Counted from the first letter of the stretch, positions 12,340-64,000 are shown. The stretch: DNA of 64,000 nt from Candidatus Kerfeldbacteria bacterium (GCA_016193315.1 JACPSJ010000001.1:219981-283980); one strand, 5' to 3'. Notes: generated by a model not told the origin, from the sequence alone. Translations and numbers: made by a program.

Positions 12340-12742
12340 TTCACAAGATACTTGCCAGATAGTCAAGAAAGCAGCATAGCTGTCCTGAGCCCCCGACTTG
12401 GCGGGACGTAAGGAACTCCGTTCGGACAGATGGCTGTGTTCCCTTCTCGACTATCCGTTGGTGACCGAGCACCGACTTCATGAAACAAAAATTAAAGAGG
12501 TGGGTTCGGGTGACGAGTGATATCGGCCCGGATTGCACCGGAAGGACGGTCGAGAAGCGCTCTCTGACAGCTCGGTATCCATAGAGCACTGGATATACAG
12601 CATCATGCTGTGCGGTGCGGATTTCTGCCCCCGACAGTTCGGCGGTAGAAATCCGCGCCTGCACGGCTGGCGATATATCCCCCAGGCCAGACAGGCCACA
12701 TAACTTTTGTAATATGGGCCGCTCGTCTGGCCTTTCTTTATT
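12340..12742 (+). ncRNA. Unassigned, highly structured roughly 400-nt non-coding region (candidate structured RNA; strand tentative)
   Basis: No credible ORF on either strand. Perfect 10-bp stem GCGGATTTCT/AGAAATCCGC (12617-12656). A plus-strand terminator-like stem GGCCAGAC...GTCTGGCC is followed by TTTCTTTATT (12686-12742). It contains CCAGUGC, CAGAGAGC and two GUCGGGGGC motifs. Confidence 0.3.
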
Positions 12743-17134: not shown

Positions 17135-17500
17135 GTAGAAGGGCAGCAGCAGTAGACGAAACACCCCGCGGCTGATCCAGCCGAGGGGCTTGAGCAGGGT
17201 TACCCGCAGGAGCAGGAGTAAACCCTTACCGGTCGCGGCCAGTCCACGGAGGACGTGGATGGCCAGGCGAACGATGGTTTGTTTGATCAGGATACTAATA
17301 GAGACTCCGTTCCACCCTATCGTCACCTTCCCCGGATCGCAACGAAACCACCATCCCAAGGCGTGGCGATAGGACTTAGTGTCGCCGAAATAGTGGGAGT
17401 GATAATACCAACTTGACCCAGACGTGTCAACGAAGATCTCCACAACTCGGCAATGTTTGTTTCGAAAACTTGTTACCTTAGCCAAAGGTTGGTACCCTGA

Positions 17501-32396: not shown

Positions 32397-32398
32397 CG

Positions 32399-36499: not shown

Positions 36500-36500
36500 G

Positions 36501-40433: not shown

Positions 40434-43333
40434 TGACCGAGCGCCTGAAGCGCCATTTCCAGCGCCACGGCCGGAGCTATCTGGCTGGCTTAATCGTGGC
40501 CGTGGTCGTCGGTGGCGTTCTCCTCGCCGGCCAGGCCATGGCCCAGACGAGTGGCGGTATTTCCGGCGGCGCGGTCAAGCCGGCGACCTTCATCCAGAAG
40601 CTCTATGCCTTCCTGGGCGACATCGTCCTCGTCATCCTGCAGTTCGTGGCCAACCTGACGGCCATGGCGATTCACGTCATCATCATCGTTTCGCAGTACA
40701 ATCACTTCATTGACGTGCCGGTCGTCAAAACCGGCTGGACCATCGTCCGCGACATCACCAACATGTTCTTTATTATCGCCCTCTTGGTCATCGCGGCCGG
40801 GACGATTTTGCGGATCGAGAACTACCGTTACAACCGCCTGCTGGCGCGGGTGATCGTGATGGCTTTCCTGGTTAACTTCTCGCGCCTGATCGCCGGCTTT
40901 TTCATCCAGTCGGCCCAAGTGGTGATGCTGACTTTTGTCAACGCCTACAAAGACGCCTTCTTCGGTAATTTCGCCCATCTCTTCGGGCTTGATTCGGTCT
41001 TACGCTTTGCCAGCGAACCAGGTCCGGTGGTTGAGCGGGTCGTCGATTTCGGCATTATTCTAATTAGTCTCTTGGCCGGGTTGGCCCTGTTGGTGGTCTC
41101 CCTGGTGGTCTCCCTGGCCATCGCCATCATCCTGGCCATTCGCATTATCGCTCTCTGGATCTTGGTCATCTTTTCCCCGTTGGCGTATGCGCTGCGGATT
41201 CTGCCGAACACCGAAGGATTTTCCCGGCGTTGGTGGTCGGAGTTTGGGAAATACGTCACCGTTGGTCCGGTCATGGCCTTTATGCTGTGGCTATCCTTGG
41301 CGATTATCGTTTCCACCGGCGCGACTGCCGAACTCAGCGAACAGACGAGCGTCAAGGATCTAGCCAAACAATACGCCGGCGAAAACGTCAGCGGCAGCAG
41401 CCAGCCGTTTGTCAACGAACTGCTGTCGCTTGAGAACCTGACTTCCTTCCTGATCGGCATCATCTTCTTGGTCATGGGCTTGAGTTACGCGACGCAGCTC
41501 GGCGGCGCAGCTGGGCGGTTCGCCGGTTCGGCCACCACCGCCGCCACCGGCGCCGCGCTCGGCGCTTCGGGCGTGGCCTGGATGCGCGACCGGACCGTGG
41601 CGCCGGTCCAAGGGTGGTTACGCAATCGCCAAGCCGCGGCCCGCGCCCGGGTTGAGGAACGGACGCAAACGCTTGAGGCGGCCGGTGATCGGCTGCGGAC
41701 GGCCTTCCCCGGCGCCGGCGCCGAACGGTCGCGGGCCGCGGCCGCTGCCTACGAGCGGCAACGGACAGCCAGGCGGATTGCCGAGCGCGGTTATGAAGAT
41801 CGGAGCCACGATGAGTTGATGACTGAGTTTCAACATGGCCGCGGTCGCGGCCGGGTGGCAGCGATGGAGGTCCTGCGACGTCGCGGCGAGATCAACTTGA
41901 CGGATCCAAACCAGAACGCTGCCTTAAATCAAGTCCTGGCCTCGGGCCGGATGCCGCCAGGAGAACGGCGCAAGATCCGTCAAGAAATATTACAGGCCAA
42001 CGTCGGCAATATGGCTGATCCGGACGTGCGGGCGCGCTTGGCCGCGGCTGGTGATCGGGATGAACAAATCGTCCTGGCTCAGGAACTAGAGCGCCGTAAG
42101 GCCCTGAACGCCGAAAACGCCGGCGACCAGGCAATCATCAATGGACTGCGGGGGAATCTGGCCGAGGTTCCGGCCCGGCTGAAAGAATTCGATGACTCGT
42201 TGAAACGGAATAACCCGCGGATGGCCCTCGAGACGATCTATGAAGGCTTCACCAGGGGGGCGGCAAACGTTGACCAGCTGCTCAATGATATCCAGCAAGG
42301 GACGTATAACGCCGCCAATCTCAACGTCCGCGATGTGGCCACTATGACCCGGAGCCTTCGCAACGTCAGCGGCCTGGGTCGTGATGAGGCCCAAAGTTAC
42401 GTGGGCAACCAGATTCTGACGAACGCCCGGTCAAAAGAGGAATATGACCGCATCATGAACAGCATGCAGAGCGACACCCGCGACATTGCCCATAACGACC
42501 TCCAGGTGGCCGCGGCCATCCCGGCTGAACGACGGCGCTGGTTGGCTGACCAGGCCTACTTGGGCGAGGCCTACGCTGGCAATGATGCGGCCGCTGATTT
42601 CTATGTCCGCAACAATAGCGATAAGGTGCTCGAGAACCTGAAGAAGGAACGTATCTCGCGGCGGACCTGGCAAACCGACGCCATTGTCGAGTCGATAACG
42701 AATCAGGATCGCATCGGTATTAACGACCTGGCCGAGGCGGTCAGGAACACCCCGGCCGTTCGCAATCACGCCTCAGCCACGTTCAACCGTATCAGTCACC
42801 GGATCAATACCACGGCCACGGCCAACACCAACGACGCGACCCAGGAAGGTCGGCGACAAAATAAACTCCGGCGTTCGTTTGTGGCCGTCTCTGGCGGCGG
42901 AGATGTCAATGACCTCATGATGGGCCCGGTGCTCGGAGCGCCAGGCGCGCAAATCAGTTCGCTCCAAGCAGCTTTCCGAATGGGTGGTGCGGCTACGACC
43001 GCCGCTTTCACCACTGCCCGCCAGGGGCTTGAACGCACCATCGCCACGGTCGGTAACCGTCTGAACCGGCTGGATTTTGCTCGCTTGCATACCACGCCCC
43101 AAGGGCAAGTCATTGAGCGGGCGGTGGTGGAAAACTTAAAGGTTTCTCATTTGGCGGAAATCGATGAACGAAATCCTGGCTTAGCTCAAAACATCGTCCA
43201 ACAAATTCGTACCACGGCCGCGCTGCCCGCCGGCACCACCTACGCCGGTCGGCCGCTGACTGGTGACGACATCGACCGACTCAATGGCACGCTGAACCGG
43301 ATCCGCCGCAGCGATCGTTTGTCCTATCTCTAA
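40430..43333 (+). CDS. VirB6/TrbL-like polytopic membrane protein with a roughly 570-aa hydrophilic C-terminal extension
   Basis: Signal peptide plus 5-6 TM helices in the first roughly 400 aa, with a TrbL/VirB6-like topology. The start overlaps the upstream stop (ATGA). The Arg-rich, helical C-terminus has no assignable domain. Confidence 0.45.
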   Translation: MMTERLKRHFQRHGRSYLAGLIVAVVVGGVLLAGQAMAQTSGGISGGAVKPATFIQKLYAFLGDIVLVILQFVANLTAMAIHVIIIVSQYNHFIDVPVVKTGWTIVRDITNMFFIIALLVIAAGTILRIENYRYNRLLARVIVMAFLVNFSRLIAGFFIQSAQVVMLTFVNAYKDAFFGNFAHLFGLDSVLRFASEPGPVVERVVDFGIILISLLAGLALLVVSLVVSLAIAIILAIRIIALWILVIFSPLAYALRILPNTEGFSRRWWSEFGKYVTVGPVMAFMLWLSLAIIVSTGATAELSEQTSVKDLAKQYAGENVSGSSQPFVNELLSLENLTSFLIGIIFLVMGLSYATQLGGAAGRFAGSATTAATGAALGASGVAWMRDRTVAPVQGWLRNRQAAARARVEERTQTLEAAGDRLRTAFPGAGAERSRAAAAAYERQRTARRIAERGYEDRSHDELMTEFQHGRGRGRVAAMEVLRRRGEINLTDPNQNAALNQVLASGRMPPGERRKIRQEILQANVGNMADPDVRARLAAAGDRDEQIVLAQELERRKALNAENAGDQAIINGLRGNLAEVPARLKEFDDSLKRNNPRMALETIYEGFTRGAANVDQLLNDIQQGTYNAANLNVRDVATMTRSLRNVSGLGRDEAQSYVGNQILTNARSKEEYDRIMNSMQSDTRDIAHNDLQVAAAIPAERRRWLADQAYLGEAYAGNDAAADFYVRNNSDKVLENLKKERISRRTWQTDAIVESITNQDRIGINDLAEAVRNTPAVRNHASATFNRISHRINTTATANTNDATQEGRRQNKLRRSFVAVSGGGDVNDLMMGPVLGAPGAQISSLQAAFRMGGAATTAAFTTARQGLERTIATVGNRLNRLDFARLHTTPQGQVIERAVVENLKVSHLAEIDERNPGLAQNIVQQIRTTAALPAGTTYAGRPLTGDDIDRLNGTLNRIRRSDRLSYL

Positions 43334-46140: not shown

Positions 46141-46626
46141 ATGGCCCAGCAATTCATCGTTCCCCAGTTCATCGAGGTCGAGGACAAAATCATTGGTCCG
46201 ATTACCGTCCGCCAATTCGTTATTATCTTAGCCGGCACGGCGCTGATCGTTGGCTCGTATCAGCTGTTGGTCAAACTGGCCAATCAAAGCGGCGCATTTT
46301 TGTTCTCCGCTTTCGGCATTCTGGTGGCCATGGTGGCCTTCGCCTTCGTCAAAGTCAACGGCCGTCCGTTCCACACCTTTCTCCTCAACGTCCTCCAGCA
46401 TCTCAAGAATCCCCGGATGCGCCTGTGGAACAACCAAATCGGCGAACGGCTCCAGTATCGCCGGGAACCTCCGCCGCCGTCGCCGATTCCGACTAAGCGA
46501 CCGCTCAGCAGCACCAAGTTGGCTCAACTGGCTCTACTGGTTGATACCGGCGGCGCTTACCACGAAGATGAAGAACTCCTCTACTGGGGGCAGGCGCTGC
46601 CAAATCAGGTGAGCCGGCGCCGATAA
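46141..46626 (+). CDS. Small two-TM membrane protein, VirB3/PrgI-like by position and topology
   Basis: Two hydrophobic helices (VRQFVIILAGTALIVGSYQLL and FLFSAFGILVAMVAFAFV), located just upstream of VirB4. Confidence 0.4.
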   Translation: MAQQFIVPQFIEVEDKIIGPITVRQFVIILAGTALIVGSYQLLVKLANQSGAFLFSAFGILVAMVAFAFVKVNGRPFHTFLLNVLQHLKNPRMRLWNNQIGERLQYRREPPPPSPIPTKRPLSSTKLAQLALLVDTGGAYHEDEELLYWGQALPNQVSRRR

Positions 46627-46636
46627 CGCTGACCGC

Positions 46637-47365
46637 TTGTCCATGGCCATAACCAAAACAAAGGAGAAGACCCGGCGGGCTAAGGCCGCCATCCCCACCC
46701 AGCAATACCTAGATATTCTGGAGATTCGTGACGATACCGTCGTCCTGCGCGACGGGACATTGCGCGCGGTGCTCCTCGTCTCGTCGATCAACTTCTCGCT
46801 CAAGTCCGAAGAGGAGCAAAACGCCGTCATCCAGGCCTACACCGAGTTCCTCAATACCATTGACTTCCCACTCCAAATCGTTATCCAATCGCGCCGACTC
46901 GACATCGATCACTACCTGGCTGAGCTCGAGCAGCTGGAAAAGCAGCAAACCAATGAGCTCCTACAGTTGCAAACCCGGGACTACCGCCAGTTCGTGGCCG
47001 AACTGGTACAGATTGCCGACATCATGACCAAACGCTTTTATGTGGTCGTCCCGTATTCACCAAAAGTCGACCGCCCGGCTCGTTTCTTCCGCCGCCTCTT
47101 CGACGTCTTCTCTCCGACGGCCACGATCCACCTCAAACAGAAACAATTCGAGACCTTCCGCCAGGAACTATTCAAGCGCGTCGACAACACCACCAACGCG
47201 CTCGACGCGGCCGGTTTGAAGTCGATCGTGGTCGACACCCAAAGTTTGATTGAGTTGTACTACAATTCATACAATCCCGAAACCGCTCGCCAACAGAAAC
47301 TCCAGGCCGTCGATAAAGTGTCGCTCGAGGACGTTTCGAGTATTAAGGAGGACGAACGTCCGTAA
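46637..47365 (+). CDS. Hypothetical protein resembling a VirB4/TrbE N-terminal (CagE_TrbE_VirB-like) domain
   Basis: The pattern IPTQQYLDILEIRDDTVVLRDGTLRAVLLVSSINFSLKSEEEQNAVIQAYTEFLNTIDFPLQIVIQS resembles the N-terminal entry region of VirB4-family ATPases. Confidence 0.3.
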   Translation: MSMAITKTKEKTRRAKAAIPTQQYLDILEIRDDTVVLRDGTLRAVLLVSSINFSLKSEEEQNAVIQAYTEFLNTIDFPLQIVIQSRRLDIDHYLAELEQLEKQQTNELLQLQTRDYRQFVAELVQIADIMTKRFYVVVPYSPKVDRPARFFRRLFDVFSPTATIHLKQKQFETFRQELFKRVDNTTNALDAAGLKSIVVDTQSLIELYYNSYNPETARQQKLQAVDKVSLEDVSSIKEDERP

Positions 47366-47429
47366 CGATTGGTGTTGCCGTTTCCCATGATTACCCCCCT
47401 TCATTCTTACTTGATGAATCTCTAACCGG

Positions 47430-49355
47430 ATGCCAGACATCAATCTCTCGAGCCCGAAAGTTTTTCGCCCCGAACCGGTGGCGTCGGTCCGCGGCGAGCA
47501 ACCGCGGCCGTCCGACGAGCGGGCGCTGATTGAGGCCGAACGGATCTATCGCCGCGGCGTAGTCACTGTCCGCGACCTGATTGCGCCGGCGGCCCTGAAA
47601 GTCGATCCGACGGCCCTGATCCTCAATGGCAAGTACGTCCGCACGCTGTTCGTCATCACCTACCCGCGATACATCTCGGTCGGCTGGTTTGCCCCGATCA
47701 TCAATTTCAACGCCCCGCTCGACGTCGCCATGTTCTTCTATCCCATCCAGTCCGACATCATCCTCAAGCAGTTGAAGAACAAAGTCGGCGCCCTCGAAGC
47801 CCAGCTGTCGGCCGATATCCAAAAGGGCGCGCCCCGTGATCCGATGCGTGAAACCGCGCTGCGCGATATTGAGAAGCTGCGGGACGACTTGACGCAAGGG
47901 ACCGAGAAATTCTTCCAGTTTGCCCTCTACGTGACGCTCTACGCCGACAAGCTCGAACAGCTGAACGAAATGACCAGCAAGATCGAGTCACATTTCGGCT
48001 CGCGCCTGGTCTATTCCAAGCGGGCCTTCTTTCAAACCGAGCAGGGTTTCACCTCGACCTTGCCGATCGGCCTCGACCAGCTCCAAGTGACGTTCAACAT
48101 GAATTCGTCGCCGATCGCCTCCAGCTTCCCGTTCGTCTCGGCCGACTTGTCGAGCGATAGCGGCGTGCTGTACGGCATTAATCGGCACAATAATTCGCTC
48201 ATCCTGTTCGACCGCTTCTCGCTCCAGAACGCTAACTATACGGTTTTCGCCAGCGCCGGCGCTGGCAAGTCATACGCGGTGAAATTGGAGATTATCCGCA
48301 GCATGATGTTCGGTACCGAGATCATCGTCATCGACCCGGAACACGAATACAAGTATTTGTCCGACGCGGTCGGCGGCACCTACATCAACGTCTCGCTCAA
48401 CTCGGAGAGCAAGATCAACCCCTTTGACTTGCCGAAGCCGATCAGCGGCGAGGAAACGACGTCGGACATCATCCGCTCGGCGGTCATCACGCTCAAGTCG
48501 GTGTTCCGCCTGATGCTCGGCGATCTGACCCACGAAGAGGATTCGATCCTCGATCGGGCCCTGCTCGAGACGTACGCCAAGAAAGACATCACTCCGGACG
48601 CCGATCTGCAGAACGTCGAAGTGCCGGTGATGTCCGACTTCGAAGATGTTCTCGGCGGCATGACTGGGGCCGAACGCATGGCTGAACGGCTGAAAAAATA
48701 CACCCAGGGCACGTTCGCCGGCCTGTTCAACAGCCCGACGAACATCGAGCTCAATAATCAGCTGGTCGTCTTCTCGGTCCGCGATCTGGAAGACGAGCTG
48801 CGGCCGATCGGCATCTCCATCATCATCAGCTACATCTGGAACGTTGCCCGCTCGAGCCTGAAGAAGCGGTTGCTGATTATTGACGAGGCCTGGTGGCTAA
48901 TGCAACACGAAGATTCGGCCAAGTTCATCTACGGCCTGGTCAAGCGCTCGCGAAAATACTACCTCGGAGTGACGACTATTACCCAGGACGTCAACGACTT
49001 CTTGCTCTCACCATACGGCCAAGCGATCATCAATAACTCGGCCTTGACGCTACTGATGAAGCAGTCGCCGGCGGCCATCGACATTGTCAGCAAGACCTTT
49101 CTCCTGACCCAGCAGGAACGTTATTTGCTGCTCGAAGCCGGCGTGGGCGAAGGGATTTTCTTCGCCGGCCCGAAGCACGCCGCCATCAAGGTCGTCGCCT
49201 CCTACGGCGAACACCAAATCGTGACCACCAATCCGGCCGAGCTGCTGGAGATTGAACGAGCCAAGAAGGAGTTCGAGCAATCAGTCGCCTCTGGCACCGC
49301 CACCAATGTCGGCTCGGCCATCGCCGACGTCCGTGAGTTAGAAACAGTGACCTAA
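47430..49355 (+). CDS. VirB4/TrbE/TraC-family type IV secretion ATPase
   Basis: Gram-positive-type VirB4 N-terminal motif KYVRTLFVITYPRYISVGWFAPIINF, Walker A SAGAGKSY and Walker B LLIIDEAWWLM (DEAW). Confidence 0.85.
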   Translation: MPDINLSSPKVFRPEPVASVRGEQPRPSDERALIEAERIYRRGVVTVRDLIAPAALKVDPTALILNGKYVRTLFVITYPRYISVGWFAPIINFNAPLDVAMFFYPIQSDIILKQLKNKVGALEAQLSADIQKGAPRDPMRETALRDIEKLRDDLTQGTEKFFQFALYVTLYADKLEQLNEMTSKIESHFGSRLVYSKRAFFQTEQGFTSTLPIGLDQLQVTFNMNSSPIASSFPFVSADLSSDSGVLYGINRHNNSLILFDRFSLQNANYTVFASAGAGKSYAVKLEIIRSMMFGTEIIVIDPEHEYKYLSDAVGGTYINVSLNSESKINPFDLPKPISGEETTSDIIRSAVITLKSVFRLMLGDLTHEEDSILDRALLETYAKKDITPDADLQNVEVPVMSDFEDVLGGMTGAERMAERLKKYTQGTFAGLFNSPTNIELNNQLVVFSVRDLEDELRPIGISIIISYIWNVARSSLKKRLLIIDEAWWLMQHEDSAKFIYGLVKRSRKYYLGVTTITQDVNDFLLSPYGQAIINNSALTLLMKQSPAAIDIVSKTFLLTQQERYLLLEAGVGEGIFFAGPKHAAIKVVASYGEHQIVTTNPAELLEIERAKKEFEQSVASGTATNVGSAIADVRELETVT

Positions 49356-49366
49356 CATACATCCCT

Positions 49367-49936
49367 ATGCCCCGTCGACTGCTCATCATCTTGATCGCCT
49401 TGGCGGCCCTGATCATCCCGGTGCTGATCGTCTTGATTGCGGTCGATCGCAGCCCGCAGCTCCAAAATACGGTCCTCAAGTTGTCGAACACCAACCAGGC
49501 AGCCAGTAATACCAATGCCCCGGCGGCGAATGGCAACACCAACGCGGCCACGCCCGAAACCGCCGAAGCCACCGCCATCCGTTTCGTGGCCCGGAACTTC
49601 ACTGAAACGTACGGCAGCGGCACGAACCAGAACGATTACGTCCACCTAACGGCCGCGAAATCATGGGGGACAAAAAGTTTCAACGATTTTCTCGATCGCT
49701 CGGCCGCCCAGCAGCGTTTGACCACCGCCACGCAGCCGTTCCACGGGATCGTCACCAAAGCGCTAGTCTTGACCATCAGCCAACAGTCCTCCCAAACCGC
49801 TTCGTTGACCGTCAGCACCCAGCGGAAGGAAACGATCGATCAAAAGACCGAAGTCTACTACCAAGATTTGTATCTTGATCTAGTTAAGGAGGGTGATGAT
49901 TGGAAGGTAAACGCCGCCTCGTGGTCTCCCCGTTAG
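49367..49936 (+). CDS. Bitopic protein with an N-terminal TM and NTF2-like periplasmic domain, VirB8-like (tentative)
   Basis: TM LLIILIALAALIIPVLIVLIAV, an Asn/Ala-rich linker, and a roughly 120-aa globular domain ending WKVNAASWSP. Confidence 0.3.
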   Translation: MPRRLLIILIALAALIIPVLIVLIAVDRSPQLQNTVLKLSNTNQAASNTNAPAANGNTNAATPETAEATAIRFVARNFTETYGSGTNQNDYVHLTAAKSWGTKSFNDFLDRSAAQQRLTTATQPFHGIVTKALVLTISQQSSQTASLTVSTQRKETIDQKTEVYYQDLYLDLVKEGDDWKVNAASWSPR

Positions 49937-49948
49937 ACTATTCGGACC

Positions 49949-50494
49949 ATGGCCATCGCTGAACAAGAATACCTGGAGGACCCCGAAGATCAGCGCCAAG
50001 CTGAACGTGCCCTTGAACAGCAGCGTTTGTCCGCGCAACGACAGGAACGGGTCAGCCAAGCCCAACCCCGACGTCAGGCGGTTCCGAGCCAGGCTCGAGC
50101 CGCGGCCGAAGCAGCCGAAGGGGCGGCTGAGTTAGCCACGCGGCAGGCCAGACTACGGGCCTGGCAACTGTGGCAGGAGGGGGCGGAAGATGCGGCCATC
50201 GCCTTTGAGGATTTCATGCTCTTCACCGGTCCCTGGGCGACTGGGCTCTATGCCTTCCGGCTCGTTTTCGGCACCCTGCTTCACGTTCCGGGAGTGCCCG
50301 GCTATTCCTGGGCCGAAGGCATCTACCGGACGCCGAAGATTCTGTGGATTATTCTTGTCACGACGGCCATCTACAGCGCTTTGTTCCTGGTGGCCTACTT
50401 CATTTTCCACCCAACTGAAATCATCGTTTTTGGCGTCAACACAGCGTCCGGGTTTTTCTTTGACGTCATCAAGTATTTTAGTCTCGGCACATGA
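49949..50494 (+). CDS. Membrane protein with a charged coiled-coil N-terminus and two C-terminal TM helices
   Basis: QRQ/ER-rich N-terminus; TM segments IILVTTAIYSALFLVAYFIF. Confidence 0.35.
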   Translation: MAIAEQEYLEDPEDQRQAERALEQQRLSAQRQERVSQAQPRRQAVPSQARAAAEAAEGAAELATRQARLRAWQLWQEGAEDAAIAFEDFMLFTGPWATGLYAFRLVFGTLLHVPGVPGYSWAEGIYRTPKILWIILVTTAIYSALFLVAYFIFHPTEIIVFGVNTASGFFFDVIKYFSLGT

Positions 50495-51573
50495 AACTGC
50501 GGTTTCTTATTGTAATGCTGGCCATCGTGGCCGCCCTGTCCGGCCCGGTGATCGCGCAATCGAGCGATACCTCGACGAGCAAGCCGATCGAATTCACGCC
50601 GGAAGTGGAATTGCCGGGCATATTCAGCGGCAAGCAAACCGTCGATCGGAATTTTATCGGCACCTATCTGCGGGCGATTTACGTCTATTTCATCTGGGCG
50701 GTCGGCGCGATGGCCACGGTGATGATCGTCTACGGCGGGATCAAGTGGGTGGCCGCGGCGGGCAACCCCGGCCGCATCCAAGACGCCCGCGACGTCATTA
50801 ACAACGCCATCATCGGCATTATTATTGCCTTAACCTCGGTTGTCCTGCTCAACCTCATCAGCCCGCGGTTTACGATTTTCAGCCTGCCGGATTTGCAGCC
50901 GGTCGAGGCCAAACCTTTTCTCGGGAAGTATAATGCCGCTTACGACTGCTACGAGGAGATCGCTTGTCCCAAGAACTATACTCAAACCCTCGGCGGCCAG
51001 TGTGGATCAGGTGGAGTCTGGGCACATGTCAACCCCGGTCAAATTCCTTGTGGTACCAGGAATGGTGTCTATGCCATTTGCTGCCGGAGGAACGACGGCT
51101 CCGAATGCCGCGGCTATACTTCAGTCAATGGGCGGCAAACATACAGTGGGGAATGCTTCAACGTGACCTCAACTCCGTCTTACACCATCGCCTGCCAAGA
51201 CAGTACTCCGTGCGGACAGGTGAATGGGCGTGATTCGTGTCGGGGCATCTATTGCGGCGCCGACCAAGTCTGCTACCTCAAAGCTCAAACGAGCGGAGTC
51301 TGTATCAACCCTGGCGCTCCTGGAGCCAGCACACGGTATACCTTCACTGGGCTTGAGTGCGGCTCGGGCACAGGTACCATGTTCTTCACCAACGGCATTG
51401 ACTGTGGGCGGCACGCCTCGGGCGAGTTCGAAGGCAGCCCGATCACTGTTTGGGGCACCAAGTCCAGTTGTCCAGCTGGGCAATACTGTAAGGTGCAGCC
51501 GCCGGCCAAGGGTGCAGGCAGTGAGTGTGTGGTTGTTCAGGGAACCGTTTGCTCTCCACTCAATGTTCTTTAA
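50491..51573 (+). CDS. Pilin-like (VirB2/TrbC-like topology) module fused to a roughly 230-aa cysteine-rich extracellular domain
   Basis: Signal peptide, then two hydrophobic helices (YLRAIYVYFIWAVGAMATVMIVYGGIKWVAAAGNPGRIQDARDVINNAIIGIIIALTSVVLLNLISPR), then more than 25 Cys. ATGA overlap with the upstream gene. Confidence 0.5.
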   Translation: MKLRFLIVMLAIVAALSGPVIAQSSDTSTSKPIEFTPEVELPGIFSGKQTVDRNFIGTYLRAIYVYFIWAVGAMATVMIVYGGIKWVAAAGNPGRIQDARDVINNAIIGIIIALTSVVLLNLISPRFTIFSLPDLQPVEAKPFLGKYNAAYDCYEEIACPKNYTQTLGGQCGSGGVWAHVNPGQIPCGTRNGVYAICCRRNDGSECRGYTSVNGRQTYSGECFNVTSTPSYTIACQDSTPCGQVNGRDSCRGIYCGADQVCYLKAQTSGVCINPGAPGASTRYTFTGLECGSGTGTMFFTNGIDCGRHASGEFEGSPITVWGTKSSCPAGQYCKVQPPAKGAGSECVVVQGTVCSPLNVL

Positions 51574-51582
51574 GACTCGGTT

Positions 51583-52827
51583 ATGACCCCCACCCTCCGC
51601 CGCATACTCCTGATCGCCGCTTTCGTCCTCGTGACCCTGGCGTTCTTCTACGTCATTTACCTCGTGTTCTTCAAGCCGACGCCGATTGTGCCGGTCAACA
51701 ATGGAGTGGGGAACGTCAACGGCTTGCCGACGGTTGGCAACGGCAACGTCAATCGGGTCGGCTTGCCGAACGCTAATGCCCTGCCAATCGTCAATGCCGT
51801 ACCCCCTGGCCAGCAGCCTTCCAACGTGGCTGAAGGCGGGCTGACCATCACCGACACGGTCGTGCCCGGGGCGTCGAGCGATCTGACCGTCGGCGGCAAA
51901 GGCTTGCGGTTCTACGACCGCGACCGCGGGCAGTTTTACGAACTCAGTCCGGACGGCACGACCAAGACGCTCTTGACGGACGACGTCTATCGCAGCGTCA
52001 GCGATATCGATTGGTCGCCCAACGGGCAACAAGCCATCCTGTCCTTTCCCGATAACTCAAAGGTGCTCTATGACTTCGAAGCCAAAAAGCAAACCACCCT
52101 GCCTCGTGAACTCAACGATTTCTTCTTCTCACCGCAATCGGACCAGATCGTCTCCAAGTTTTTGAACCCGACCAACGCCGACGATCAGTGGCTGCTGGTC
52201 AGTCGACCGGACGGGTCGCAGTCGGAAACGGTCGAGCACCTGGGGGAAAACGCCAGCCGCGTGACGACCGCCTGGTCGCCGAATAACCAAATCATCGCCA
52301 CCTACCGAAGGTCGACGACCGGAGAGCTATCGGAAATCATTTTTTTGGGCGCCAAGGGCGAGAATTTCCGTTCCGCCACCATCGAGGGCAAAGGGTTCAC
52401 GCCGCTCTGGTCACCGGATGGTCGCCGCCTGCTGTACAGTGCCTACAGCCCGAATACGAATGACAATCCCCACCTCTACATCATGGACGGTTCGCCGGAC
52501 AGTCTGGGCACAAACCTGGTCGATCTTGGCCTCGATACCACCGCTGACAAATGCGCCTTCTCGCAAAGCGCCTACACGATCTACTGCGCCGTGCCGTATT
52601 ACTTGAACGCCGGTTCCGGGCCGCAGCCGGAGCTGTCGGCCGGGGTGCCCGACAACATTTACCGTGTTGATCTGCTCAGCGGCTCAGCCGAAATTATTGC
52701 TCGGCCGGTGGATCGGAACGGCAACCAGCGCTTCAGCGCCGCGAACCTGCGATTGTCTCCCCGAGAAGATCTGCTGTATTTCGTTGACGCCGCGACCGGA
52801 ACGATTCAGAAAATTCAACTCCGCTAG
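51583..52827 (+). CDS. N-terminally anchored TolB-like (PD40/WD40-type) beta-propeller protein
   Basis: TM ILLIAAFVLVTLAFFYVIYLVFF and repeated WSP[ND]G motifs (WSPNGQQAILSF, WSPNNQIIATY, WSPDGRRLLYSA). Confidence 0.5.
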   Translation: MTPTLRRILLIAAFVLVTLAFFYVIYLVFFKPTPIVPVNNGVGNVNGLPTVGNGNVNRVGLPNANALPIVNAVPPGQQPSNVAEGGLTITDTVVPGASSDLTVGGKGLRFYDRDRGQFYELSPDGTTKTLLTDDVYRSVSDIDWSPNGQQAILSFPDNSKVLYDFEAKKQTTLPRELNDFFFSPQSDQIVSKFLNPTNADDQWLLVSRPDGSQSETVEHLGENASRVTTAWSPNNQIIATYRRSTTGELSEIIFLGAKGENFRSATIEGKGFTPLWSPDGRRLLYSAYSPNTNDNPHLYIMDGSPDSLGTNLVDLGLDTTADKCAFSQSAYTIYCAVPYYLNAGSGPQPELSAGVPDNIYRVDLLSGSAEIIARPVDRNGNQRFSAANLRLSPREDLLYFVDAATGTIQKIQLR

Positions 52828-52829
52828 CG

Positions 52830-53756
52830 ATGGGTCGCTGGCTGATCGTCCTGTGGCTGGCCGGTTGGGCGACCGGGGTGACCGCTCAGTCCGACATACC
52901 GCTCGTTCCCGAACCAAAAGCCATTGATTTCAAGCCGGAGGTGCCGCTGCCGACATTTGCCGGCGGACCGATCAGCGCCGCCACCTTTGCCGAGTACATC
53001 CGCGCGGTGTTTGTGGCTTTTGTCTGGATCGTCGGTATTCTAGCCGTGGTGATGGTCGTCTACGGCGGGGTCAAGTGGGTGGCCGCCGCCGGCAATCCCG
53101 GGCGGATCACCGACGCGCGGGAAACAGTCAACAGCGCCATCATCGGGCTGATCATTGCCTTGGTATCAGTCGTGCTGCTCAACCTGATCAGCCCCCGCCT
53201 GACCCAATTTCCCGGTCTGACCCTGTTGTCGGTCAAAGGAACGCCCTTAGAATTTGACAACGTCGTCGGCATCCACGGCGAAGGCCAAGCTGGGCAGGCG
53301 TGCAACTTGCATACCGACAAATCCTGCCAGCTATTCAATGTGACGATGAGCTGGCCGGTTAGTAACGTCACGGAGCGCGGGATTAGCAGCCCGATCGGGC
53401 CCCGGCGGGTCGTGGGCGCAGCCAGCGCCTCGTCCTGCCACCCGGGCACCGATTTTAAGACCGATCGTCAAACCGGCAAAGAAGTTCGAGCCATGCACAG
53501 CGGAACGATTCGTCTCGATCCCAGGCGGCCGTGTAATGAAGCGGCACTGTTTGTGGACGGCGATGGGTTCTCCACGCGCTACGTTCACATCTCCAGTGTG
53601 GCGGTGCGGGAAGGTCAAAAGGTCCGCCCGGGTGATCTAATCGGTTACAGTGGCGGCGACCCCAAAGTGGCCGGCAACTGCAGTTCCGCGCCGCACCTGC
53701 ACGTCGAGCTCTACATTCTCAACCGGCTGGCTGATGTCGCGGCCTGTATTGACTAG
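52830..53756 (+). CDS. Pilin-like module, paralogous to 50491-51573, fused to an M23 (LytM) peptidase domain
   Basis: N-module about 80% identical to the paralog (VYGGVKWVAAAGNPGRITDARETVNSAIIGLIIALVSVVLLNLISPR). M23 motifs CHPGTDFKTD (HxxxD) and SAPHLHVELY (HxH). Confidence 0.6.
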   Translation: MGRWLIVLWLAGWATGVTAQSDIPLVPEPKAIDFKPEVPLPTFAGGPISAATFAEYIRAVFVAFVWIVGILAVVMVVYGGVKWVAAAGNPGRITDARETVNSAIIGLIIALVSVVLLNLISPRLTQFPGLTLLSVKGTPLEFDNVVGIHGEGQAGQACNLHTDKSCQLFNVTMSWPVSNVTERGISSPIGPRRVVGAASASSCHPGTDFKTDRQTGKEVRAMHSGTIRLDPRRPCNEAALFVDGDGFSTRYVHISSVAVREGQKVRPGDLIGYSGGDPKVAGNCSSAPHLHVELYILNRLADVAACID

Positions 53757-53919: not shown

Positions 53920-55989
53920 CTATTCGCGGTGGAAGGCGAGACCATGATGGTCGGAGTTCGGAATCAACTGTGGGACAAGGCCCGAACGGTGGGCGATGAT
54001 ATCGCGCGCGGCCAGGCGCGCCGCCTCCATCAGCGCCGTGTCTAGCAAGGTGGCCAACTGCCAATCCGGCAGCCCGGACTGGCGTAACCCGTAAAGGTCG
54101 CCGCCGCCGCGCAGCTCAAGATCTAATTCGGCCAAGCGATAGCCGTCGTCGATCTTAGCTACCCGATGCAAACGATCGAGCATGGCTTCACTTGTCTGGT
54201 CGGTGACGAGAAAACAGCGACTCGGTCGAGAGCCGCGTCCGACCCGGCCGCGAAGTTGATGGAGCTGGGCCAACCCGAATCGTTCCGCCCCTTCGATGAT
54301 CATCAGCGTCGCGTTGGGGACGTCAATGCCGACCTCAATGACCGTGGTGCTGACCAGGAGGTCAAGCTGGTGTTGTCGAAACCGTTGCAGGATCTGGAGA
54401 CGCTCGTTGGCCGGCAATGATCCGTGGAGTAGGCCGATCCGCAGTTTCGGCCAGGCGGCGGTCAGCCGTTCGGCCTCGCTGGTGGCGGCTCGGACTCCGA
54501 GCGCATCCGATTCGACGATCAGGGGAGTAATGACGAAGACCTGCTCACCGCGGCCGACGGTTTCCGTGGTCACTCGATCGACCTGGGCTCGACCAGCCGG
54601 TCCGATGACCGTGGTCGGGATCGGCTGGCGACCAACCGGTTTGTGTCGGAGCGCGGAAATGCTGAGCTGACCGGTTAAAAACAAAGCCAGCGTTCGGGGG
54701 ATGGGCGTGGCGGTCAGACTGAGGAAGTGCGGCATTGGCTGGCCGGCGGCAATTTGCCGTTCCAGAAGTTGTTGACGCTGCTGAACCCCAAACCGCTGCT
54801 GTTCGTCAATGATCACCAAGCCGAGACGGTGCCAGCCAACAGTTTCCGCTAGCAGGGCGTGGGTGGCGACGACGAGATTGATGGTGCCGGACTGCAATCG
54901 CGCGGTGAAATCCGACCGACTGATCGGGCCACGCTGGCCGGCGAGGCGCAGCCCGCTGCTTGACAGGAACCCAACGCTCGCGTGTTCAGCCGGCAACAAC
55001 GTGCTCAGGGTTTGCCAATGCTGTTCAGCCAGCACCACCGTCGGCGCCAGCCAGGCGACCTGCCAGCCGCCAAGAACGGCGTTGAAGGCGGCCATCGCCG
55101 CCACCAAGGTTTTCCCCGAGCCGACGTCGCCTTGGAGCAGTCGGGCCATCGGTTCGGTCCGCTGCAGGTCCTGAAGTATTTGCCAGGCCGCTAAACGCTG
55201 GTCATGGGTGAGGGGAAACGGCAATTGGCGGACAAAGGCCCGGATGTCTGCCTGGCGGAAGGGAATGGTTGGCGCGGGGTGGCGCTGGCTGAGCGTCGCC
55301 GCATGCTGCCAGCGCAGCTGCCAGGCCAGGAGCTCATCGAATTTCAAACGGCGAACCGCCGCCGCGGCGGCTTCGGGCGAGGTGGGAAAATGAATTTGCC
55401 TGAGCGCCTCGGCTCGCTCGCTCAAGTCAAGTGACTGGCGTATGTCAGCCGGCAGCGTCTCCGGCACCAGGCTGATGAGGGCTACGGCCTGCTTCATCAC
55501 CCGGCGGATTTGCCATTGCGATAGCCCAGCTGTCGACGGGTAGACTGGTACCAGTTTCTCGTGGCTGGGATTAGCGGTCGGTCGTTCGTAGAACGGGTTT
55601 TGGAGTTGGAGTTTGCCTTGCTTGGTCCGGCTGACGCGACCGGATAAATACAACCACTGCCCGATTTTGAACCAGGTCGCTAAGTACGGCTGGTTGAACC
55701 AGACCACGGCCAGCCGCCCGCCGGTACGGTCGGTGACCACGGCTTCAGTCACGTTCATCCGCCGGCGCCAAGCCGGTCTGGCCTTGATCGAACTGATTTG
55801 CCCGACCACCGTCACTTCCTGGCCGACGGTCAGCCGGTCAATGCTCACCCGCTGGCGAAAATCCTGGTGGCGGATTGGAAAATGAAACAGGGCATCTTGC
55901 AGAGTGGTTAAACCCAAGGACGTGAATTTCTCGGCGATCTCTGGACGGACGCCGCGCAATGACTTGATTGGTGTCAGGAGCGAGGGCAT
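53920..55989 (-). CDS. recG: ATP-dependent DNA helicase RecG
   Basis: Wedge domain, helicase motif I DVGSGKTLVA, motif II IIDEQQRFGV, motif VI QLRGRVGRG and the C-terminal TRG region. The start was chosen at MPSLLTPIKSL. Confidence 0.9.
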   Translation of the reverse strand: MPSLLTPIKSLRGVRPEIAEKFTSLGLTTLQDALFHFPIRHQDFRQRVSIDRLTVGQEVTVVGQISSIKARPAWRRRMNVTEAVVTDRTGGRLAVVWFNQPYLATWFKIGQWLYLSGRVSRTKQGKLQLQNPFYERPTANPSHEKLVPVYPSTAGLSQWQIRRVMKQAVALISLVPETLPADIRQSLDLSERAEALRQIHFPTSPEAAAAAVRRLKFDELLAWQLRWQHAATLSQRHPAPTIPFRQADIRAFVRQLPFPLTHDQRLAAWQILQDLQRTEPMARLLQGDVGSGKTLVAAMAAFNAVLGGWQVAWLAPTVVLAEQHWQTLSTLLPAEHASVGFLSSSGLRLAGQRGPISRSDFTARLQSGTINLVVATHALLAETVGWHRLGLVIIDEQQRFGVQQRQQLLERQIAAGQPMPHFLSLTATPIPRTLALFLTGQLSISALRHKPVGRQPIPTTVIGPAGRAQVDRVTTETVGRGEQVFVITPLIVESDALGVRAATSEAERLTAAWPKLRIGLLHGSLPANERLQILQRFRQHQLDLLVSTTVIEVGIDVPNATLMIIEGAERFGLAQLHQLRGRVGRGSRPSRCFLVTDQTSEAMLDRLHRVAKIDDGYRLAELDLELRGGGDLYGLRQSGLPDWQLATLLDTALMEAARLAARDIIAHRSGLVPQLIPNSDHHGLAFHRE

Positions 55990-56135
55990 ACCTGTATTGT
56001 AGCAAAAGCACCGCGAAAGACCCTGCCTCAACCTTGTTTTTTTGGTCGACTTCTGGTACAATAGCGCGGTTAGAATTACGGTCTGACCCCCGCGGAGTAT
56101 CAGGAGTAGCATTAGTGGTCAGAATCATGACTCAC

Positions 56136-56287: not shown

Positions 56288-56362
56288 GTCCCTATAGCTC
56301 AGTCCGGATAGAGCGTCAGCTTGCGGAGCTGAAGGTCGCAGGTTCAAATCCTGCTGGGGACG
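56288..56362 (+). tRNA. tRNA-Arg-like, anticodon read as GCG; embedded in a 13-bp leader/trailer extension of the acceptor stem
   Basis: GTCCCTA TA GCTC AGTCCGGAT AGAGC G TCAGC TTGCGGA GCTGA AGGTC GCAGG TTCAAAT CCTGC TGGGGAC G. Flanks TTTTTCGCTGAGC / GCTCAGCGAAAAA are complementary. Confidence 0.8.
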
Positions 56363-56410
56363 CTCAGCGAAAAAAGAGGCAGGCTTGTCCCGTGGATTCT
56401 AGCGGAGCGA

Positions 56411-56448
56411 GGATCTATAGGGGATTCAAATCCTGTCGGGCGCGCCAG
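56411..56448 (+). other. tRNA 3-prime fragment (T-loop-like TTCAAAT + acceptor CGGGCGC + G + CCA), complementary to the 5-prime fragment at 56136
   Basis: CGGGCGC is the exact complement of GCGCCCG; the T-stem pairing is imperfect. Confidence 0.35.
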
Positions 56449-56449
56449 G

Positions 56450-56476
56450 GAAGGGTGGCCGAGTGGGTTGCGGCGG
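56450..56476 (+). other. tRNA-Ser-type 5-prime fragment (acceptor GGAAGGG + class II D-arm), followed by long GC hairpins
   Basis: GGAAGGG TG GCC GAGTGGGTTGC GGC, similar to the 5-prime end of tRNA-Ser(GCT); its 3-prime partner is at 56748-56810. Confidence 0.4.
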
Positions 56477-56622
56477 GGTGCGAACGCAAAGCAAATGAAC
56501 TGCTTCATTTGCGTCCCGCCGCAACGGGCGCGGCCATGTTCCGGAGGAACGAACGCGCCCAGGAAGAAAAATTTGGATTGAACCGGCGACCTTAAAAAAC
56601 GATCAACCGAGCAGCTCCTGGC

Positions 56623-56712
56623 GGAGAGGTGGCCGAGTGGCTGAAGGCAGCGGTTTGCTAAACCGTTATATGGTCAAAAGCCGTATCGTGGGTTCGAATC
56701 CCACCCTCTCCG
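56623..56712 (+). tRNA. tRNA-Ser(GCT), CCA encoded, flanked by 11-12-bp leader/trailer complementarity
   Basis: GGAGAGG TG GCC GAGTGGCTGAA GGC A GCGGT TTGCTAA ACCGT [long variable arm] GTGGG TTCGAAT CCCAC CCTCTCC G CCA. Confidence 0.85.
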
Positions 56713-56747
56713 CCAGGAGCTGGTGGATAATACTGAATGTATTAGGG

Positions 56748-56810
56748 ACGGTTTGCTAAACCTTGGTGCCGCAAGGCGCCTCGTGGGTTCGAATCCCACC
56801 CCTTCCGCCA
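56748..56810 (+). other. tRNA-Ser(GCT)-like 3-prime portion (anticodon arm ACGGT-TTGCTAA-ACCTT, variable arm, T-arm, acceptor CCCTTCC-G-CCA), complementary to the 5-prime fragment at 56450
   Basis: CCCTTCC is the exact complement of GGAAGGG. A further truncated copy, GAATCCCACCCCTTCCGCCA, lies at 56964-56983. Confidence 0.4.
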
Positions 56811-57098
56811 CGACCAACGAAGGTGAGGAGTGGCGACCTGTGCGCCGAAGGGCGCACGCGGAATGCGGCGGGATTCGAAGGGTTGGAGCGAGCTAGTCGC
56901 GTCGGGCGCGACGCGGCGAGCGATCGACGAGCCGCCGGTGGCGGGTCGTCGCAACCCAGGAAAGAATCCCACCCCTTCCGCCAGTTCGTATGTAGCGCGG
57001 AGCCGCGCGATAGTGGTTGGATCGGGCAGCCTTGTCCCGCCGATGGCGGAGAGTTGGCTGAGTGGTTTAAGGCGGCGGTCTCGTCACCGCACCGGAGC

Positions 57099-57185
57099 GG
57101 AGGGGTGGCTGAGTGGTCGAAAGCGACGGTCTTGAAAACCGTTAGACCTTCACGGGTCTCGTGAGTTCGAATCTCACCCCCTCCG
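57099..57185 (+). tRNA. tRNA-Ser(TGA)
   Basis: GGAGGGG TG GCT GAGTGGTCGAAA GCG A CGGT(C) CTTGAAA ACCG [variable arm GACCTTCACGGGTC] GTGAG TTCGAAT CTCAC CCCCTCC G. A degenerate 5-prime partial copy lies immediately upstream (57044-57098). Confidence 0.85.
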
Positions 57186-57520
57186 CCCTGGTGCGGGATC
57201 CCGTCTATTTTCTTTGATATTATAGGGGCGGGAAAAACCGCTAAACCTGCAAAGGTTTCGTAGGTTCGAATCCTAACGCCTCCGCTCCCGTCATGAGTCT
57301 TGTCCCTCAGAGCCGGATCCGGCTTCGCCGTAAAAACCGTCAGTCATGAAAAGGTCTCGTGGGTTCTCCGCCTCCGTTCTCCCTGCAACATCGGGCGGAT
57401 CCGCCGCAGCTTAAAAAAAAAGCGGAGGCGGAGAATCTCACCCCTCTGCTTTGTTCGCGGATCCCGCTAACCTTTGATTCTCTAAAATAAGAAGCGGGGA
57501 AAACCGTAAAAACATACAGG
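57186..57520. repeat. Degenerate tRNA-derived repeat region with GGATCC-centred GC palindromes
   Basis: Repeated tRNA 3-prime-end-like pieces (GGTTCGAATCCTAACGCCTCCGC, GGGTTCTCCGCCTCCG, GAATCTCACCCCTCT). Palindromes GCGGGATCCCG, GCCGGATCCGGC, GGGCGGATCCGCC and GCGGATCCCGC. 10-bp inverted repeat TCCGCCTCCG/CGGAGGCGGA. Confidence 0.4.
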
Positions 57521-63234: not shown

Positions 63235-64000
63235 CTACGAATCAACACCCCCCATTGCCCGCAGCGCCGCCACTCGTTCCGGAATCGGCGGGTGAGTCGA
63301 GAATAACTTGGCCAGGCCGCGGACGCTCGGACCGAACGGATTGCTGATAAAGAGGTGGGCGGTGGCGTTGTTAGCGCGGCTCAGCGGCTCGGTCGTCTGG
63401 GCAATTTTCTCCAACGCCCGGGCCAAGCCTTCTGGATATCGTGTCAGCAAGGCGCCGGCGGCGTCAGCCAGGAACTCCCTGCGCCGGGACACGGCGAACT
63501 GGAGGAGTCGGGCAATGATCGGTGCTAGGATTAGCAGGACTAGGCCGATCAGAAGCAGTATGGCCTGAACCTGACCAGCGGAACGATTTCCGCCGCGACG
63601 ACCGCCGCCGAGCCAGCGGGTCCGCCAGAACAGGTCGCCGAACATGATGATGATGCCGACCAAGACGGTAACCAGGGTCATGAAGCGGATATCGAGGTTC
63701 CGGACGTGCGACAACTCGTGGGCCAGCACCCCTTCGAGTTCTTCGTTCTCGAGTCGCTCGACTGCACCAGTCGTGACGGCCACCGAGGCATGCTTCAGAT
63801 CTCGTCCAGTAGCAAAGGCGTTGATCTGCGGGCTATCGATCAGGTAGATCTGCGGCACCGGCAGGCCAGCGGTGATGGATAGGTTCTCGACCATTCGCCA
63901 CAGATAGGGATTGTCCTGACGGTCGATCGGCCCGTGGGCCCCGCTAGTGACCAAGGCCAGCCGGTCCCCGCCAAAGTAGCCACCGACGGCCATGCCGACG
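63235..64000 (-). CDS. htpX: HtpX-like M48 zinc metalloprotease; the N-terminus probably lies beyond the window end
   Basis: HELSHVRNLD (HExxH), a downstream EFLADAAGA glutamate ligand, and two C-terminal TM helices. Confidence 0.8.
   Translation of the reverse strand, partial: VGMAVGGYFGGDRLALVTSGAHGPIDRQDNPYLWRMVENLSITAGLPVPQIYLIDSPQINAFATGRDLKHASVAVTTGAVERLENEELEGVLAHELSHVRNLDIRFMTLVTVLVGIIIMFGDLFWRTRWLGGGRRGGNRSAGQVQAILLLIGLVLLILAPIIARLLQFAVSRRREFLADAAGALLTRYPEGLARALEKIAQTTEPLSRANNATAHLFISNPFGPSVRGLAKLFSTHPPIPERVAALRAMGGVDS

Follow-up and report, generated by a model that had tools for sequence, protein, structure and literature searches.

A conserved pilin-like hairpin carries a predicted peptidoglycan hydrolase and a cysteine-rich domain in a type IV secretion operon of Candidatus Kerfeldbacteria

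The closing part of a type IV secretion system (T4SS) operon from Candidatus Kerfeldbacteria, an ultrasmall bacterium of the CPR, encodes two paralogs, A and B, in which one N-terminal module (a signal peptide followed by a PF18895 helical hairpin) is joined to entirely different C-terminal domains: a cysteine-rich domain in A and an M23 peptidase in B. The fusion of a pilin-like hairpin to a hydrolase is lineage-typical and recurrent rather than a one-off, with hydrolases and cysteine-rich domains being exchanged on a constant hairpin. On balance, we favor as probable the reading that the shared hairpin is a T4SS assembly module presenting exchangeable extracytoplasmic cargo, with B as the equivalent of VirB1 or PrgK.

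The stretch of DNA analyzed (64 kb, hereafter the window) belongs to a Kerfeldbacteria chromosome (MAG) represented in NCBI by a contig of 857 kb. The operon reads, in order, PrgI, TraC-N/TrsD, CD1110-type VirB4, p189, p181, A, propeller and B on the plus strand, and the intergenic gaps along it of 46, 10, 64, 11, 12, −4, 9 and 2 nt indicate a tight operon of which B is the last gene. PrgI, a VirB3-like protein (46141–46626), was recognized by Pfam PF12666 (43.9 bits). VirB4 is split (46637–49355) into a TraC-N/TrsD-like part of 242 aa (46637–47365) and an ATPase part of 641 aa (47430–49355), as it is in every related locus examined; NCBIfam conju_CD1110 matched with 347 bits (cutoff 325), and Pfam P-loop_TraG matched as well. 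The first-pass annotation, made from the sequence alone, had placed A and B at a T4SS-like machine, and PrgI and the CD1110-type VirB4 in the adjoining genes bear this out. Two small membrane proteins of 189 and 181 aa (49367–50494, plus strand) lie at a conserved position between VirB4 and A, the latter overlapping gene A by 4 nt. They are possible candidates for VirB8-like (p189) and VirB6-like (p181) parts; neither gave a significant family match to Pfam or NCBIfam profiles, and a search of p189 as a VirB8-like protein returned no significant match. Between A and B lies a membrane-anchored TolB/PD40-like β-propeller of 414 aa (51583–52827, plus strand; weak matches to Pfam PD40 and NCBIfam TolB; PDB TolB 7mx5, E = 9e-6). 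The convergent neighbor of B is a RecG-like helicase gene (53920–56112, minus strand) that is kept in related loci, as supported by phmmer synteny and by RecG_wedge, DEAD and Helicase_C domains called in three of them (L001–L003). Likewise, recG adjoins T4SS loci of ABY1 (PMC12102498). Neither a coupling protein nor a relaxase was found within the 64-kb window, and a mobile-element origin was rejected because both are missing, housekeeping genes surround the operon and the locus is chromosomal. A promoter and terminator scan of 43–54 kb gave terminator-like sites at background and promoter-like sites modestly above it, and did not define the operon ends.

Gene A (50491–51573, plus strand) encodes a protein of 360 aa; the NCBI entry HYY50_01420, a hypothetical protein by annotation, matches it with 100% identity. 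Its signal peptide (aa 1–22; 50491–50556) has a predicted signal peptidase I cleavage site after VIA and is followed by a helix-loop-helix hairpin with the loop AGNP (aa 55–123; 50653–50859), delimited by AF2 helices, hydropathy peaks and the Pfam match. The remainder is a cysteine-rich β-domain (aa 136–360; 50896–51570). It contains 20 cysteines, all at residues 153–354, rather than the 25 or more first reported; among ten orthologs, 13 of these are invariant and 5 nearly so. The predicted topology puts this domain outside the membrane, in line with the extracellular location originally proposed. Fold and sequence searches detected no relative of known fold and no sequence relative, and a binding role is for that reason a guess, a binding or contact domain being the most likely assignment.

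Gene B (52830–53756, plus strand) encodes a 308-aa protein that is 100% identical to an NCBI entry named ‘peptidoglycan DD-metalloendopeptidase family protein’. The hairpin (aa 52–120; 52983–53189), located by its Pfam match and aligning to that of A, is connected through a linker of ~45 residues to the M23 catalytic domain (53331–53717), which contains six cysteines. The domain matched Pfam Peptidase_M23 (PF01551) with 56.3 bits (cutoff 28.7). Alignment to Campylobacter jejuni Pgp3 (6jmx, E = 5e-12) showed that the zinc residues H204 and D208 (HxxxD, in HPGTD) and H289 and H291 (HxH, in HLH), together with the catalytic His of YVHIS, are conserved. B thus looks like an active M23 peptidoglycan endopeptidase, as the first reading had it. 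Since a LysM+M23 protein is also encoded in the window (15986–17485, minus strand), B is not its sole M23 enzyme.

Both the ORFs and the common module initially described are real. The N-modules of A and B are 53% identical (75/142 residues, E = 2e-39 by BLASTP). The roughly 80% identity claimed for the whole helix-loop-helix applies only to its most conserved 50 residues (A76–125 and B73–122, 40/50), while the full helix-loop-helix is 70% identical (50/71). Both proteins scored above the curated PF18895 (T4SS_pilin) gathering cutoff of 26.6 bits (A, 34.6 bits over aa 56–123; B, 42.1 bits over aa 52–120). The signal peptides are of the signal peptidase I type with AxA-type cleavage motifs (VIA↓QS and VTA↓QS), and the two hydrophobic helices expected after them were found by hydropathy and by an AlphaFold2 model of the module (helices at 25–58 and 63–93, pLDDT 80.5). 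A search of the window that included a broadened HMM found two copies of the module, those of A and B; a third, weak match (63235–63993, minus strand) proved to be the HtpX M48 protease.

The full cassette is kept in at least 13 related loci. Gene order is the same in L001–L013 and L016, N-module genes occupy the same slots in L017–L019 and L021, and the propeller gene always lies between the two paralogs (L001–L014, L016–L019 and L021, E down to 1e-181). The catalytic domain in the last slot varies: M23 in the window and in L001/L008, L004 and L005; SLT, the commonest type among relatives of B, in L002, L006, L007 and L009–L013; and M15_4 in L003. Fusions of the hairpin to VanY also occur (P0056), and public data contain 16 PF18895+M23 clusters in addition to SLT, M15_4 and VanY versions. 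Because these non-homologous enzymes all act on peptidoglycan, their exchange suggests that selection on the last slot is for wall cleavage. In the first paralog, four or more mutually unrelated cysteine-rich domains occur, and which of them is present is independent of the hydrolase type. Each of the 96 close relatives extends by 163 residues or more beyond the hairpin, and some (P0004, P0109, P0118 and P0127) have large cysteine-rich, β-helix or Ig-like domains between signal peptide and hairpin; an N-out/C-out topology fits cargo on either end.

The two hairpins have evolved in concert. Hairpin cores of paralogs within a genome are 74% identical, compared to 61% and 66% for orthologs between genomes, and none of 10,000 permutations reached the observed within-genome likeness, which suggests that both hairpins fit one and the same assembly. 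Recent gene conversion is not supported, as the two are 72% identical at the DNA level and share no identical stretch longer than 16 nt. Identical synonymous codons are in modest excess (29 observed versus 20.8 expected, P about 0.008); this excess is compatible with either old conversion or protein-level co-evolution and does not separate the two.

How closely the module resembles established pilins was assessed at several levels. Its size and layout resemble those of classical TrbC/VirB2 (PF04956) and F-type TraA, with a leader that is cleaved off and two long hydrophobic helices joined by a short basic loop, and VirB3 and VirB4 genes likewise accompany it. In contrast to A and B, the 120 VirB2 homologs listed span 102–193 aa, all but one being shorter than 130 aa, and none has a cargo domain of comparable size. 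Profile similarity to TrbC/VirB2, proposed at the outset, was not found: PF04956 did not match A or B at E ≤ 1, and a 40-sequence module profile compared by hhalign to 119 VirB2 sequences reached a probability of 0.3%, below the reversed controls (3.2–3.4%). A sequence link to solved pilins was also rejected, as the module HMM produced only chance HtrII matches among PDB sequences (E 0.16–0.8). A fold search with the hairpin model returned thousands of matches to generic helices, which were uninformative. Of the VirB2/TrbC-like designation, the assignment to the T4SS pilin family stands, whereas homology to classical VirB2 is not detectable; the putative connection to genuine pilins comes from the Pfam family name and the genomic context.

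Closer counterparts are the VirB2-like pilin (PF18895) genes that adjoin virB4 in patescibacterial T4SS loci (PMC12102498, Quinonero-Coronel et al. 2025; PMC10633639, Wang et al. 2023). These share with A and B the family, the build of signal peptide plus two hydrophobic helices, and the chromosomal site beside PrgI/VirB3 and an MPF-FATA-like VirB4, without a relaxase. Typical PF18895 members are about 100–150 aa long with almost nothing after helix 2, whereas A and B carry C-terminal domains of 180–230 residues, one of them catalytic. PF18895 ORFs in other CPR classes have a median length of 136 aa (117/142 are ≤160 aa), a small stand-alone format to which neither A nor B conforms. A published supplementary table lists such proteins plainly as VirB2, and hydrolase fusions are absent from the text (PMC12102498). 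The architecture had been called unusual; the literature we searched indeed does not mention the hydrolase fusion or the cargo swapping, but VirB2-like pilins beside virB4 were already known and the fusion itself is recurrent.

B was also compared to the wall-degrading enzymes of other T4SSs. PrgK (pCF10), TraG (pIP501), TcpG (pCW3) and VirB1 (Agrobacterium) are likewise encoded in T4SS operons and modular with varied catalytic domains, and PrgK also contains a LytM/M23-type domain. Known T4SS hydrolases have a single N-terminal transmembrane anchor or a plain signal peptide, and none is known to have a VirB2-like hairpin as its base. SLT or CHAP domains of the VirB1/TrsG/CD419 type were not matched in B by Pfam, although proteins in the orthologous slot elsewhere carry SLT. 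Two-domain SLT+CHAP hydrolases have been described (PMC12102498), whereas B has M23 only. The peptidase and lysozyme genes of Southlakia, by comparison, are separate genes downstream of virB4 and are essential (PMC12102498, PMC10633639).

In our preferred reading, A and B would both belong, as accessory subunits, to a T4SS of monoderm type (MPF-FATA-like) encoded on the chromosome of Kerfeldbacteria (Patescibacteria, class ABY1). After export by Sec and cleavage of the signal peptide, the mature proteins would sit in the membrane as PF18895 hairpins whose two termini lie outside the cytoplasm, while the short basic loop is cytoplasmic. A constant assembly module of this kind may place A and B in or on the T4SS, leaving the C-terminal domain as exchangeable extracytoplasmic cargo; the effector-like nature and delivery first proposed for these domains are putative. 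B would then supply the wall-opening activity provided by VirB1, PrgK or TraG in other T4SSs, tethered by a pilin-like hairpin where those enzymes have one transmembrane anchor or a signal peptide only, and A would contribute a disulfide-rich β-domain with a putative role in binding. The hydrolase could target the wall of a host rather than that of the producer, an option that the swapping of catalytic types fits equally well.

An alternative that we regard as unlikely is that PF18895 hairpins polymerize into a VirB2-type filament, with A and B as minor or tip subunits that bring an adhesin-like domain and a wall-degrading enzyme out to the surface of a host bacterium, whose wall the enzyme breaches. 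VirB2-type pilins have both termini outside in the F- and T-pilus structures, as predicted for A and B, and the concerted evolution of the hairpins fits subunits packed in one polymer. The rapid swapping of hydrolase type and cysteine-rich domain resembles host-range determinants, and the short plain PF18895 members that L011 and L013 have close to the cassette could be major subunits. In Saccharibacteria, as in other CPR classes, short members (~130 aa) also occur as arrays of up to nine genes; these go by the name of pilins, and Southlakia requires them (PMC12857230, PMC10633639). Against a filament, the 64-kb window holds no short member, no homology to structurally characterized pilins was detected, and cargo of 170 to over 580 residues at one end of the hairpin or at both would be hard to pack except in rare or terminal subunits; such bulk constrains models of A and B as ordinary major pilins. 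In addition, a pilus has never been demonstrated for any monoderm T4SS, a review granting the possibility only (PMC12857230), and no filament has been shown for PF18895 family members (PMC12857230, PMC10633639). Were this reading true, an epibiont-type bacterium would possess a T4SS-filament ‘drill’ that turns a peptidoglycan cutter and a variable disulfide-rich adhesin against the wall of its host bacterium, and the interchangeable M23, SLT and M15_4 heads and at least four kinds of adhesin would suit the chemistry of that wall.

It is improbable, in our view, that the hairpin merely routes A and B to the T4SS or the membrane and that the C-terminal domains are then cut off as soluble effectors or toxins acting on neighboring cells. 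The disulfide-rich C-terminal domains (20 cysteines in A and 6 in B) are typical of extracellular proteins, the linker in B separates hairpin and enzyme, and the cargo diversity resembles polymorphic toxin systems. Release is opposed by the segment just past helix 2, which is conserved and type-specific, by the lack of a conserved protease site or dedicated protease gene identified in the cassette, and by the gene after B, which is the convergent RecG rather than a small immunity-like gene. That the module is a generic signal-anchor found on unrelated genes was raised with the first-pass annotation. We consider very improbable, and disfavor, such a view, in which the T4SS neighborhood would be incidental, B a housekeeping wall remodeler and A an unrelated surface protein, because PF18895 scores above threshold in both proteins, both copies in the window lie in the operon, the same two operon slots are used in at least 13 loci of divergent genomes whose outer flanks differ, and a separate housekeeping-type LysM+M23 enzyme is present.

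In the single patescibacterial species tested, epibiotic growth requires the T4SS, yet the function of patescibacterial T4SSs has been called completely unknown (PMC11665869), and it is open whether they form pili (PMC12857230). With the hairpin as assembly module, B becomes a candidate ‘missing VirB1’ for such systems, the wall hydrolase of the ABY1 lineage being fused to a VirB2-like module. The cassette can be viewed as a natural Rosetta-stone fusion that ties a pilin-like hairpin functionally to wall cleavage and a variable surface domain, and cargo swapping on a constant, co-evolving hairpin yields testable predictions on hydrolase specificity (own versus host peptidoglycan) and cargo localization.

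A further resemblance is to Mycoplasma ICEs. The ‘Mbov_0395 family pilin-like conjugal transfer protein’ model (NF045849) did not match A; it aligned to the B hairpin over positions 9–76 of 80 (E = 1e-4) at 21.9 bits, below its 40-bit cutoff, and proteins of that family are short, unlike A and B. The VirB4 next to the cassette also matches the Mycoplasma ICE VirB4 model.

Gene A (50491-51573, plus strand, 360 aa) and gene B (52830-53756, plus strand, 308 aa) encode proteins identical over their full lengths to the NCBI entries 'hypothetical protein HYY50_01420' and 'peptidoglycan DD-metalloendopeptidase family protein', respectively. Pairwise alignment of their N-terminal parts gave 53% identity across 142 residues (E 2e-39). 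The first-pass annotation had assigned both a signal peptide and two hydrophobic helices, and this held: Sec-type signal peptides, ending ..VIA ahead of QS in A and ..VTA ahead of QS in B, are followed by a conserved F-x-P-E-x-x-x-P and then by a pair of long hydrophobic helices with the loop AAAGNPGR between them. This helix-loop-helix, or hairpin, had been put at about 80% identity, a figure that applies to A76-125 and B73-122 (40/50), while the whole 71 residues are 70% identical. The Cys-rich domain of A has 20 cysteines instead of the 25 or more first counted, all within residues 153-354 and largely invariant among orthologs. B has the M23 endopeptidase domain ascribed to it, with HPGTD as the HxxxD motif and HLH as the HxH motif (Pfam Peptidase_M23, 56.3 bits), and in an alignment with the solved M23 enzyme Pgp3 (6jmx) the zinc ligands and catalytic histidine were all present. 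A separate 499-aa LysM+M23 protein (15986-17485, minus strand) is encoded outside the T4SS operon and looks like a conventional wall-remodelling enzyme independent of it.

The hairpin belongs to PF18895 ('Type IV secretion system pilin'), matched by A with 34.6 bits and by B with 42.1 bits (curated cutoff 26.6). The family is very large: a profile of 40 trimmed modules, searched against 1.84 billion representative proteins, matched 51,260 clusters at E<=1e-3. Members in Saccharibacteria, Peregrinibacteria and Gracilibacteria are short (median 136 aa; 117 of 142 ORFs at most 160 aa) and are often arrayed in groups of five to nine genes. The patescibacterial T4SS and its VirB2-like genes are known; 'VirB2-like pilins' adjoining virB4 have been described (PMC12102498) and are essential in Southlakia epibionticum (PMC10633639; PMC12857230). 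The label 'VirB2/TrbC-like' initially given to A and B found no support at the sequence level, as neither matched PF04956 (TrbC/VirB2) at E<=1, an HMM search of PDB sequences with the module returned no pilin among its matches, and hhalign of the module profile against 119 VirB2 sequences gave a probability of 0.3%, below the reversed-sequence controls. The match of B to the Mycoplasma ICE 'pilin-like conjugal transfer protein' model was sub-threshold (21.9 bits, cutoff 40). 'Pilin-like', as applied to A and B, therefore denotes PF18895 membership, topology and gene context, and not a demonstrated kinship with structurally known pilins. Several metagenomic proteins, including P0165 (1147 aa) and P0098 (552 aa), contain up to 11 tandem PF18895 hairpins per polypeptide and resemble pilin arrays merged into one chain.

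A and B lie at the end of a plus-strand operon whose genes are tightly packed, at spacings of 46, 10, 64, 11, 12, -4, 9 and 2 nt. Its genes encode, in order, a Pro-rich protein (564 aa), the VirB3-like PrgI, a TraC-N/TrsD-like protein (242 aa), a VirB4 ATPase (641 aa) assigned to the monoderm CD1110 type at 347 bits against a cutoff of 325, a pair of small membrane proteins of 189 and 181 aa, A, a TolB/PD40-like beta-propeller with a membrane anchor, and B. The TraC-N/TrsD-like protein and the ATPase represent a split VirB4 (46637-49355, plus strand), and the same split was seen in every related locus examined. A convergent RecG gene lies 3' of the operon, followed by three tRNA genes (56288-57188). 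No relaxase or coupling protein was found in the 64-kb window. This context agrees with what has been published for class ABY1, including the adjacency of recG and T4SS genes (PMC12102498); Kerfeldbacteria belong to this class (supplement of PMC12102498).

The window proteins were mapped onto related loci, comprising three contexts obtained by exact protein look-up and 78 loci from species-representative genomes. Close relatives of A and B occur paired on the same contigs, and the order PrgI, TraC-N, VirB4, p189, p181-like, hairpin+Cys-rich, propeller, hairpin+hydrolase, with RecG convergent, is conserved: loci L001-L013 and L016 have the same order as the window, and L017-L019 and L021 carry hairpin genes in the same slots. 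The hydrolase itself is swapped. The last cassette gene encodes M23 in the window, L001/L008, L004 and L005, SLT in L002, L006, L007 and L009-L013, and Peptidase_M15_4 in L003; a hairpin-VanY fusion also exists (P0056). A domain census of 61 further representatives found nine with SLT, four with M23 and three with M15_4. The Cys-rich domain of the first paralog is of at least four unrelated kinds, which combine freely with the hydrolase types. The hairpin-hydrolase fusion recurs in public data and is visible in precomputed domain annotations; in the literature searched, we found no mention of pilin-like hairpins fused to peptidoglycan hydrolases or of the swapping of hairpin cargo domains, and the key survey records such proteins simply as VirB2 (PMC12102498). 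In L002, the hairpin-SLT gene and RecG are separated by a RadA/Sms-like gene (11151-12527, plus strand), which fits the published neighborhood of ABY1 T4SS loci with recombination and competence genes (PMC12102498). L004, L008, L011, L013, L014 and others come from TPA metagenome assemblies titled 'uncultured Gammaproteobacteria bacterium' despite their Patescibacteria-type cassette, and these titles are probably taxonomic mislabels.

The two hairpins of a genome evolve in concert, a pattern of which the literature searched makes no mention. Over a 66-residue core in the 14 genomes having both paralogs, the pair inside one genome averaged 74% identity, compared to 61% (first gene) and 66% (second gene) for orthologs between genomes and 61% for cross-type pairs between genomes; 10,000 permutations never yielded a within-genome value as high as the one observed. 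The paralogs are mutual nearest neighbors in five genomes, with up to 92% identity in L001. The segment before helix 1 shows the opposite, type-specific pattern. Recent gene conversion is not supported, since the A and B hairpins of the window are only 72% identical in DNA and their identical synonymous codons exceed expectation only modestly (29 versus 20.8 expected, P about 0.008). The likeness may stem from older conversion or from co-evolution at the protein level. In either case, the two hairpins seem to be under constraint to remain similar, which would fit a pair of parts in equivalent positions of one assembly.

The best-supported reading, which we consider on balance probable, is that the hairpin would serve as a common T4SS assembly module and the C-terminal domains as exchangeable cargo outside the cytoplasm. 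At least 163 residues follow the hairpin in all 96 close relatives, and several relatives have an additional large Cys-rich, beta-helix or Ig-like domain between signal peptide and hairpin (for example, P0109, 935 aa, and P0118, 1006 aa). Large domains on either side of the hairpin fit only a topology with both ends outside the cytoplasm, which we infer for A and B. B would then be the functional counterpart of VirB1/PrgK/TraG, a putative wall hydrolase held at the T4SS machine, whichever wall it may cut, and A would display a disulfide-rich domain, probably for binding. A recognisable VirB1 is missing from most patescibacterial genomes that have VirB2 homologues, and its role may fall to other hydrolases (PMC12102498); such a function of B would account for this. 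The cassette bears on the open questions of what replaces VirB1 in patescibacterial T4SSs and whether patescibacterial 'pilins' really form pili. If the hairpins do polymerize, A and B could be minor or tip subunits that bring cargo to a host cell. Short plain PF18895-type ORFs (109-110 aa) just past RecG in L011 (11779-12111, minus strand) and L013 (15398-15727, plus strand) could provide the major subunits, but the 64-kb window has no such ORF, and we regard this main rival as unlikely. Release of the cargo by proteolysis seems more doubtful still, and a generic anchor with no relation to the T4SS is highly improbable.

Directly upstream of the cassette are four giant co-oriented ORFs (26811-43333, plus strand; 1861, 1366, 1579 and 967 aa), which likely encode surface proteins linked to the T4SS. 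Those of 1366 and 1579 aa have Ig-like (Big_7), fn3 or BNR-type Pfam matches, those of 1861 and 967 aa matched no family, and L003 has a 1639-aa gene at the same place. Two of them, as listed at 32399-36499 and 35694-40433, share about 800 nt, and one or both starts have probably been misassigned. The remainder of the window consists of housekeeping genes, among them that of the LysM+M23 enzyme and a leucyl-tRNA synthetase ORF (17501-21421, plus strand, 1306 aa) with extra Ham1p_like (aa 265-444) and NUDIX (aa 615-726) Pfam matches that fall between its synthetase domains, insertions unusual for this enzyme.
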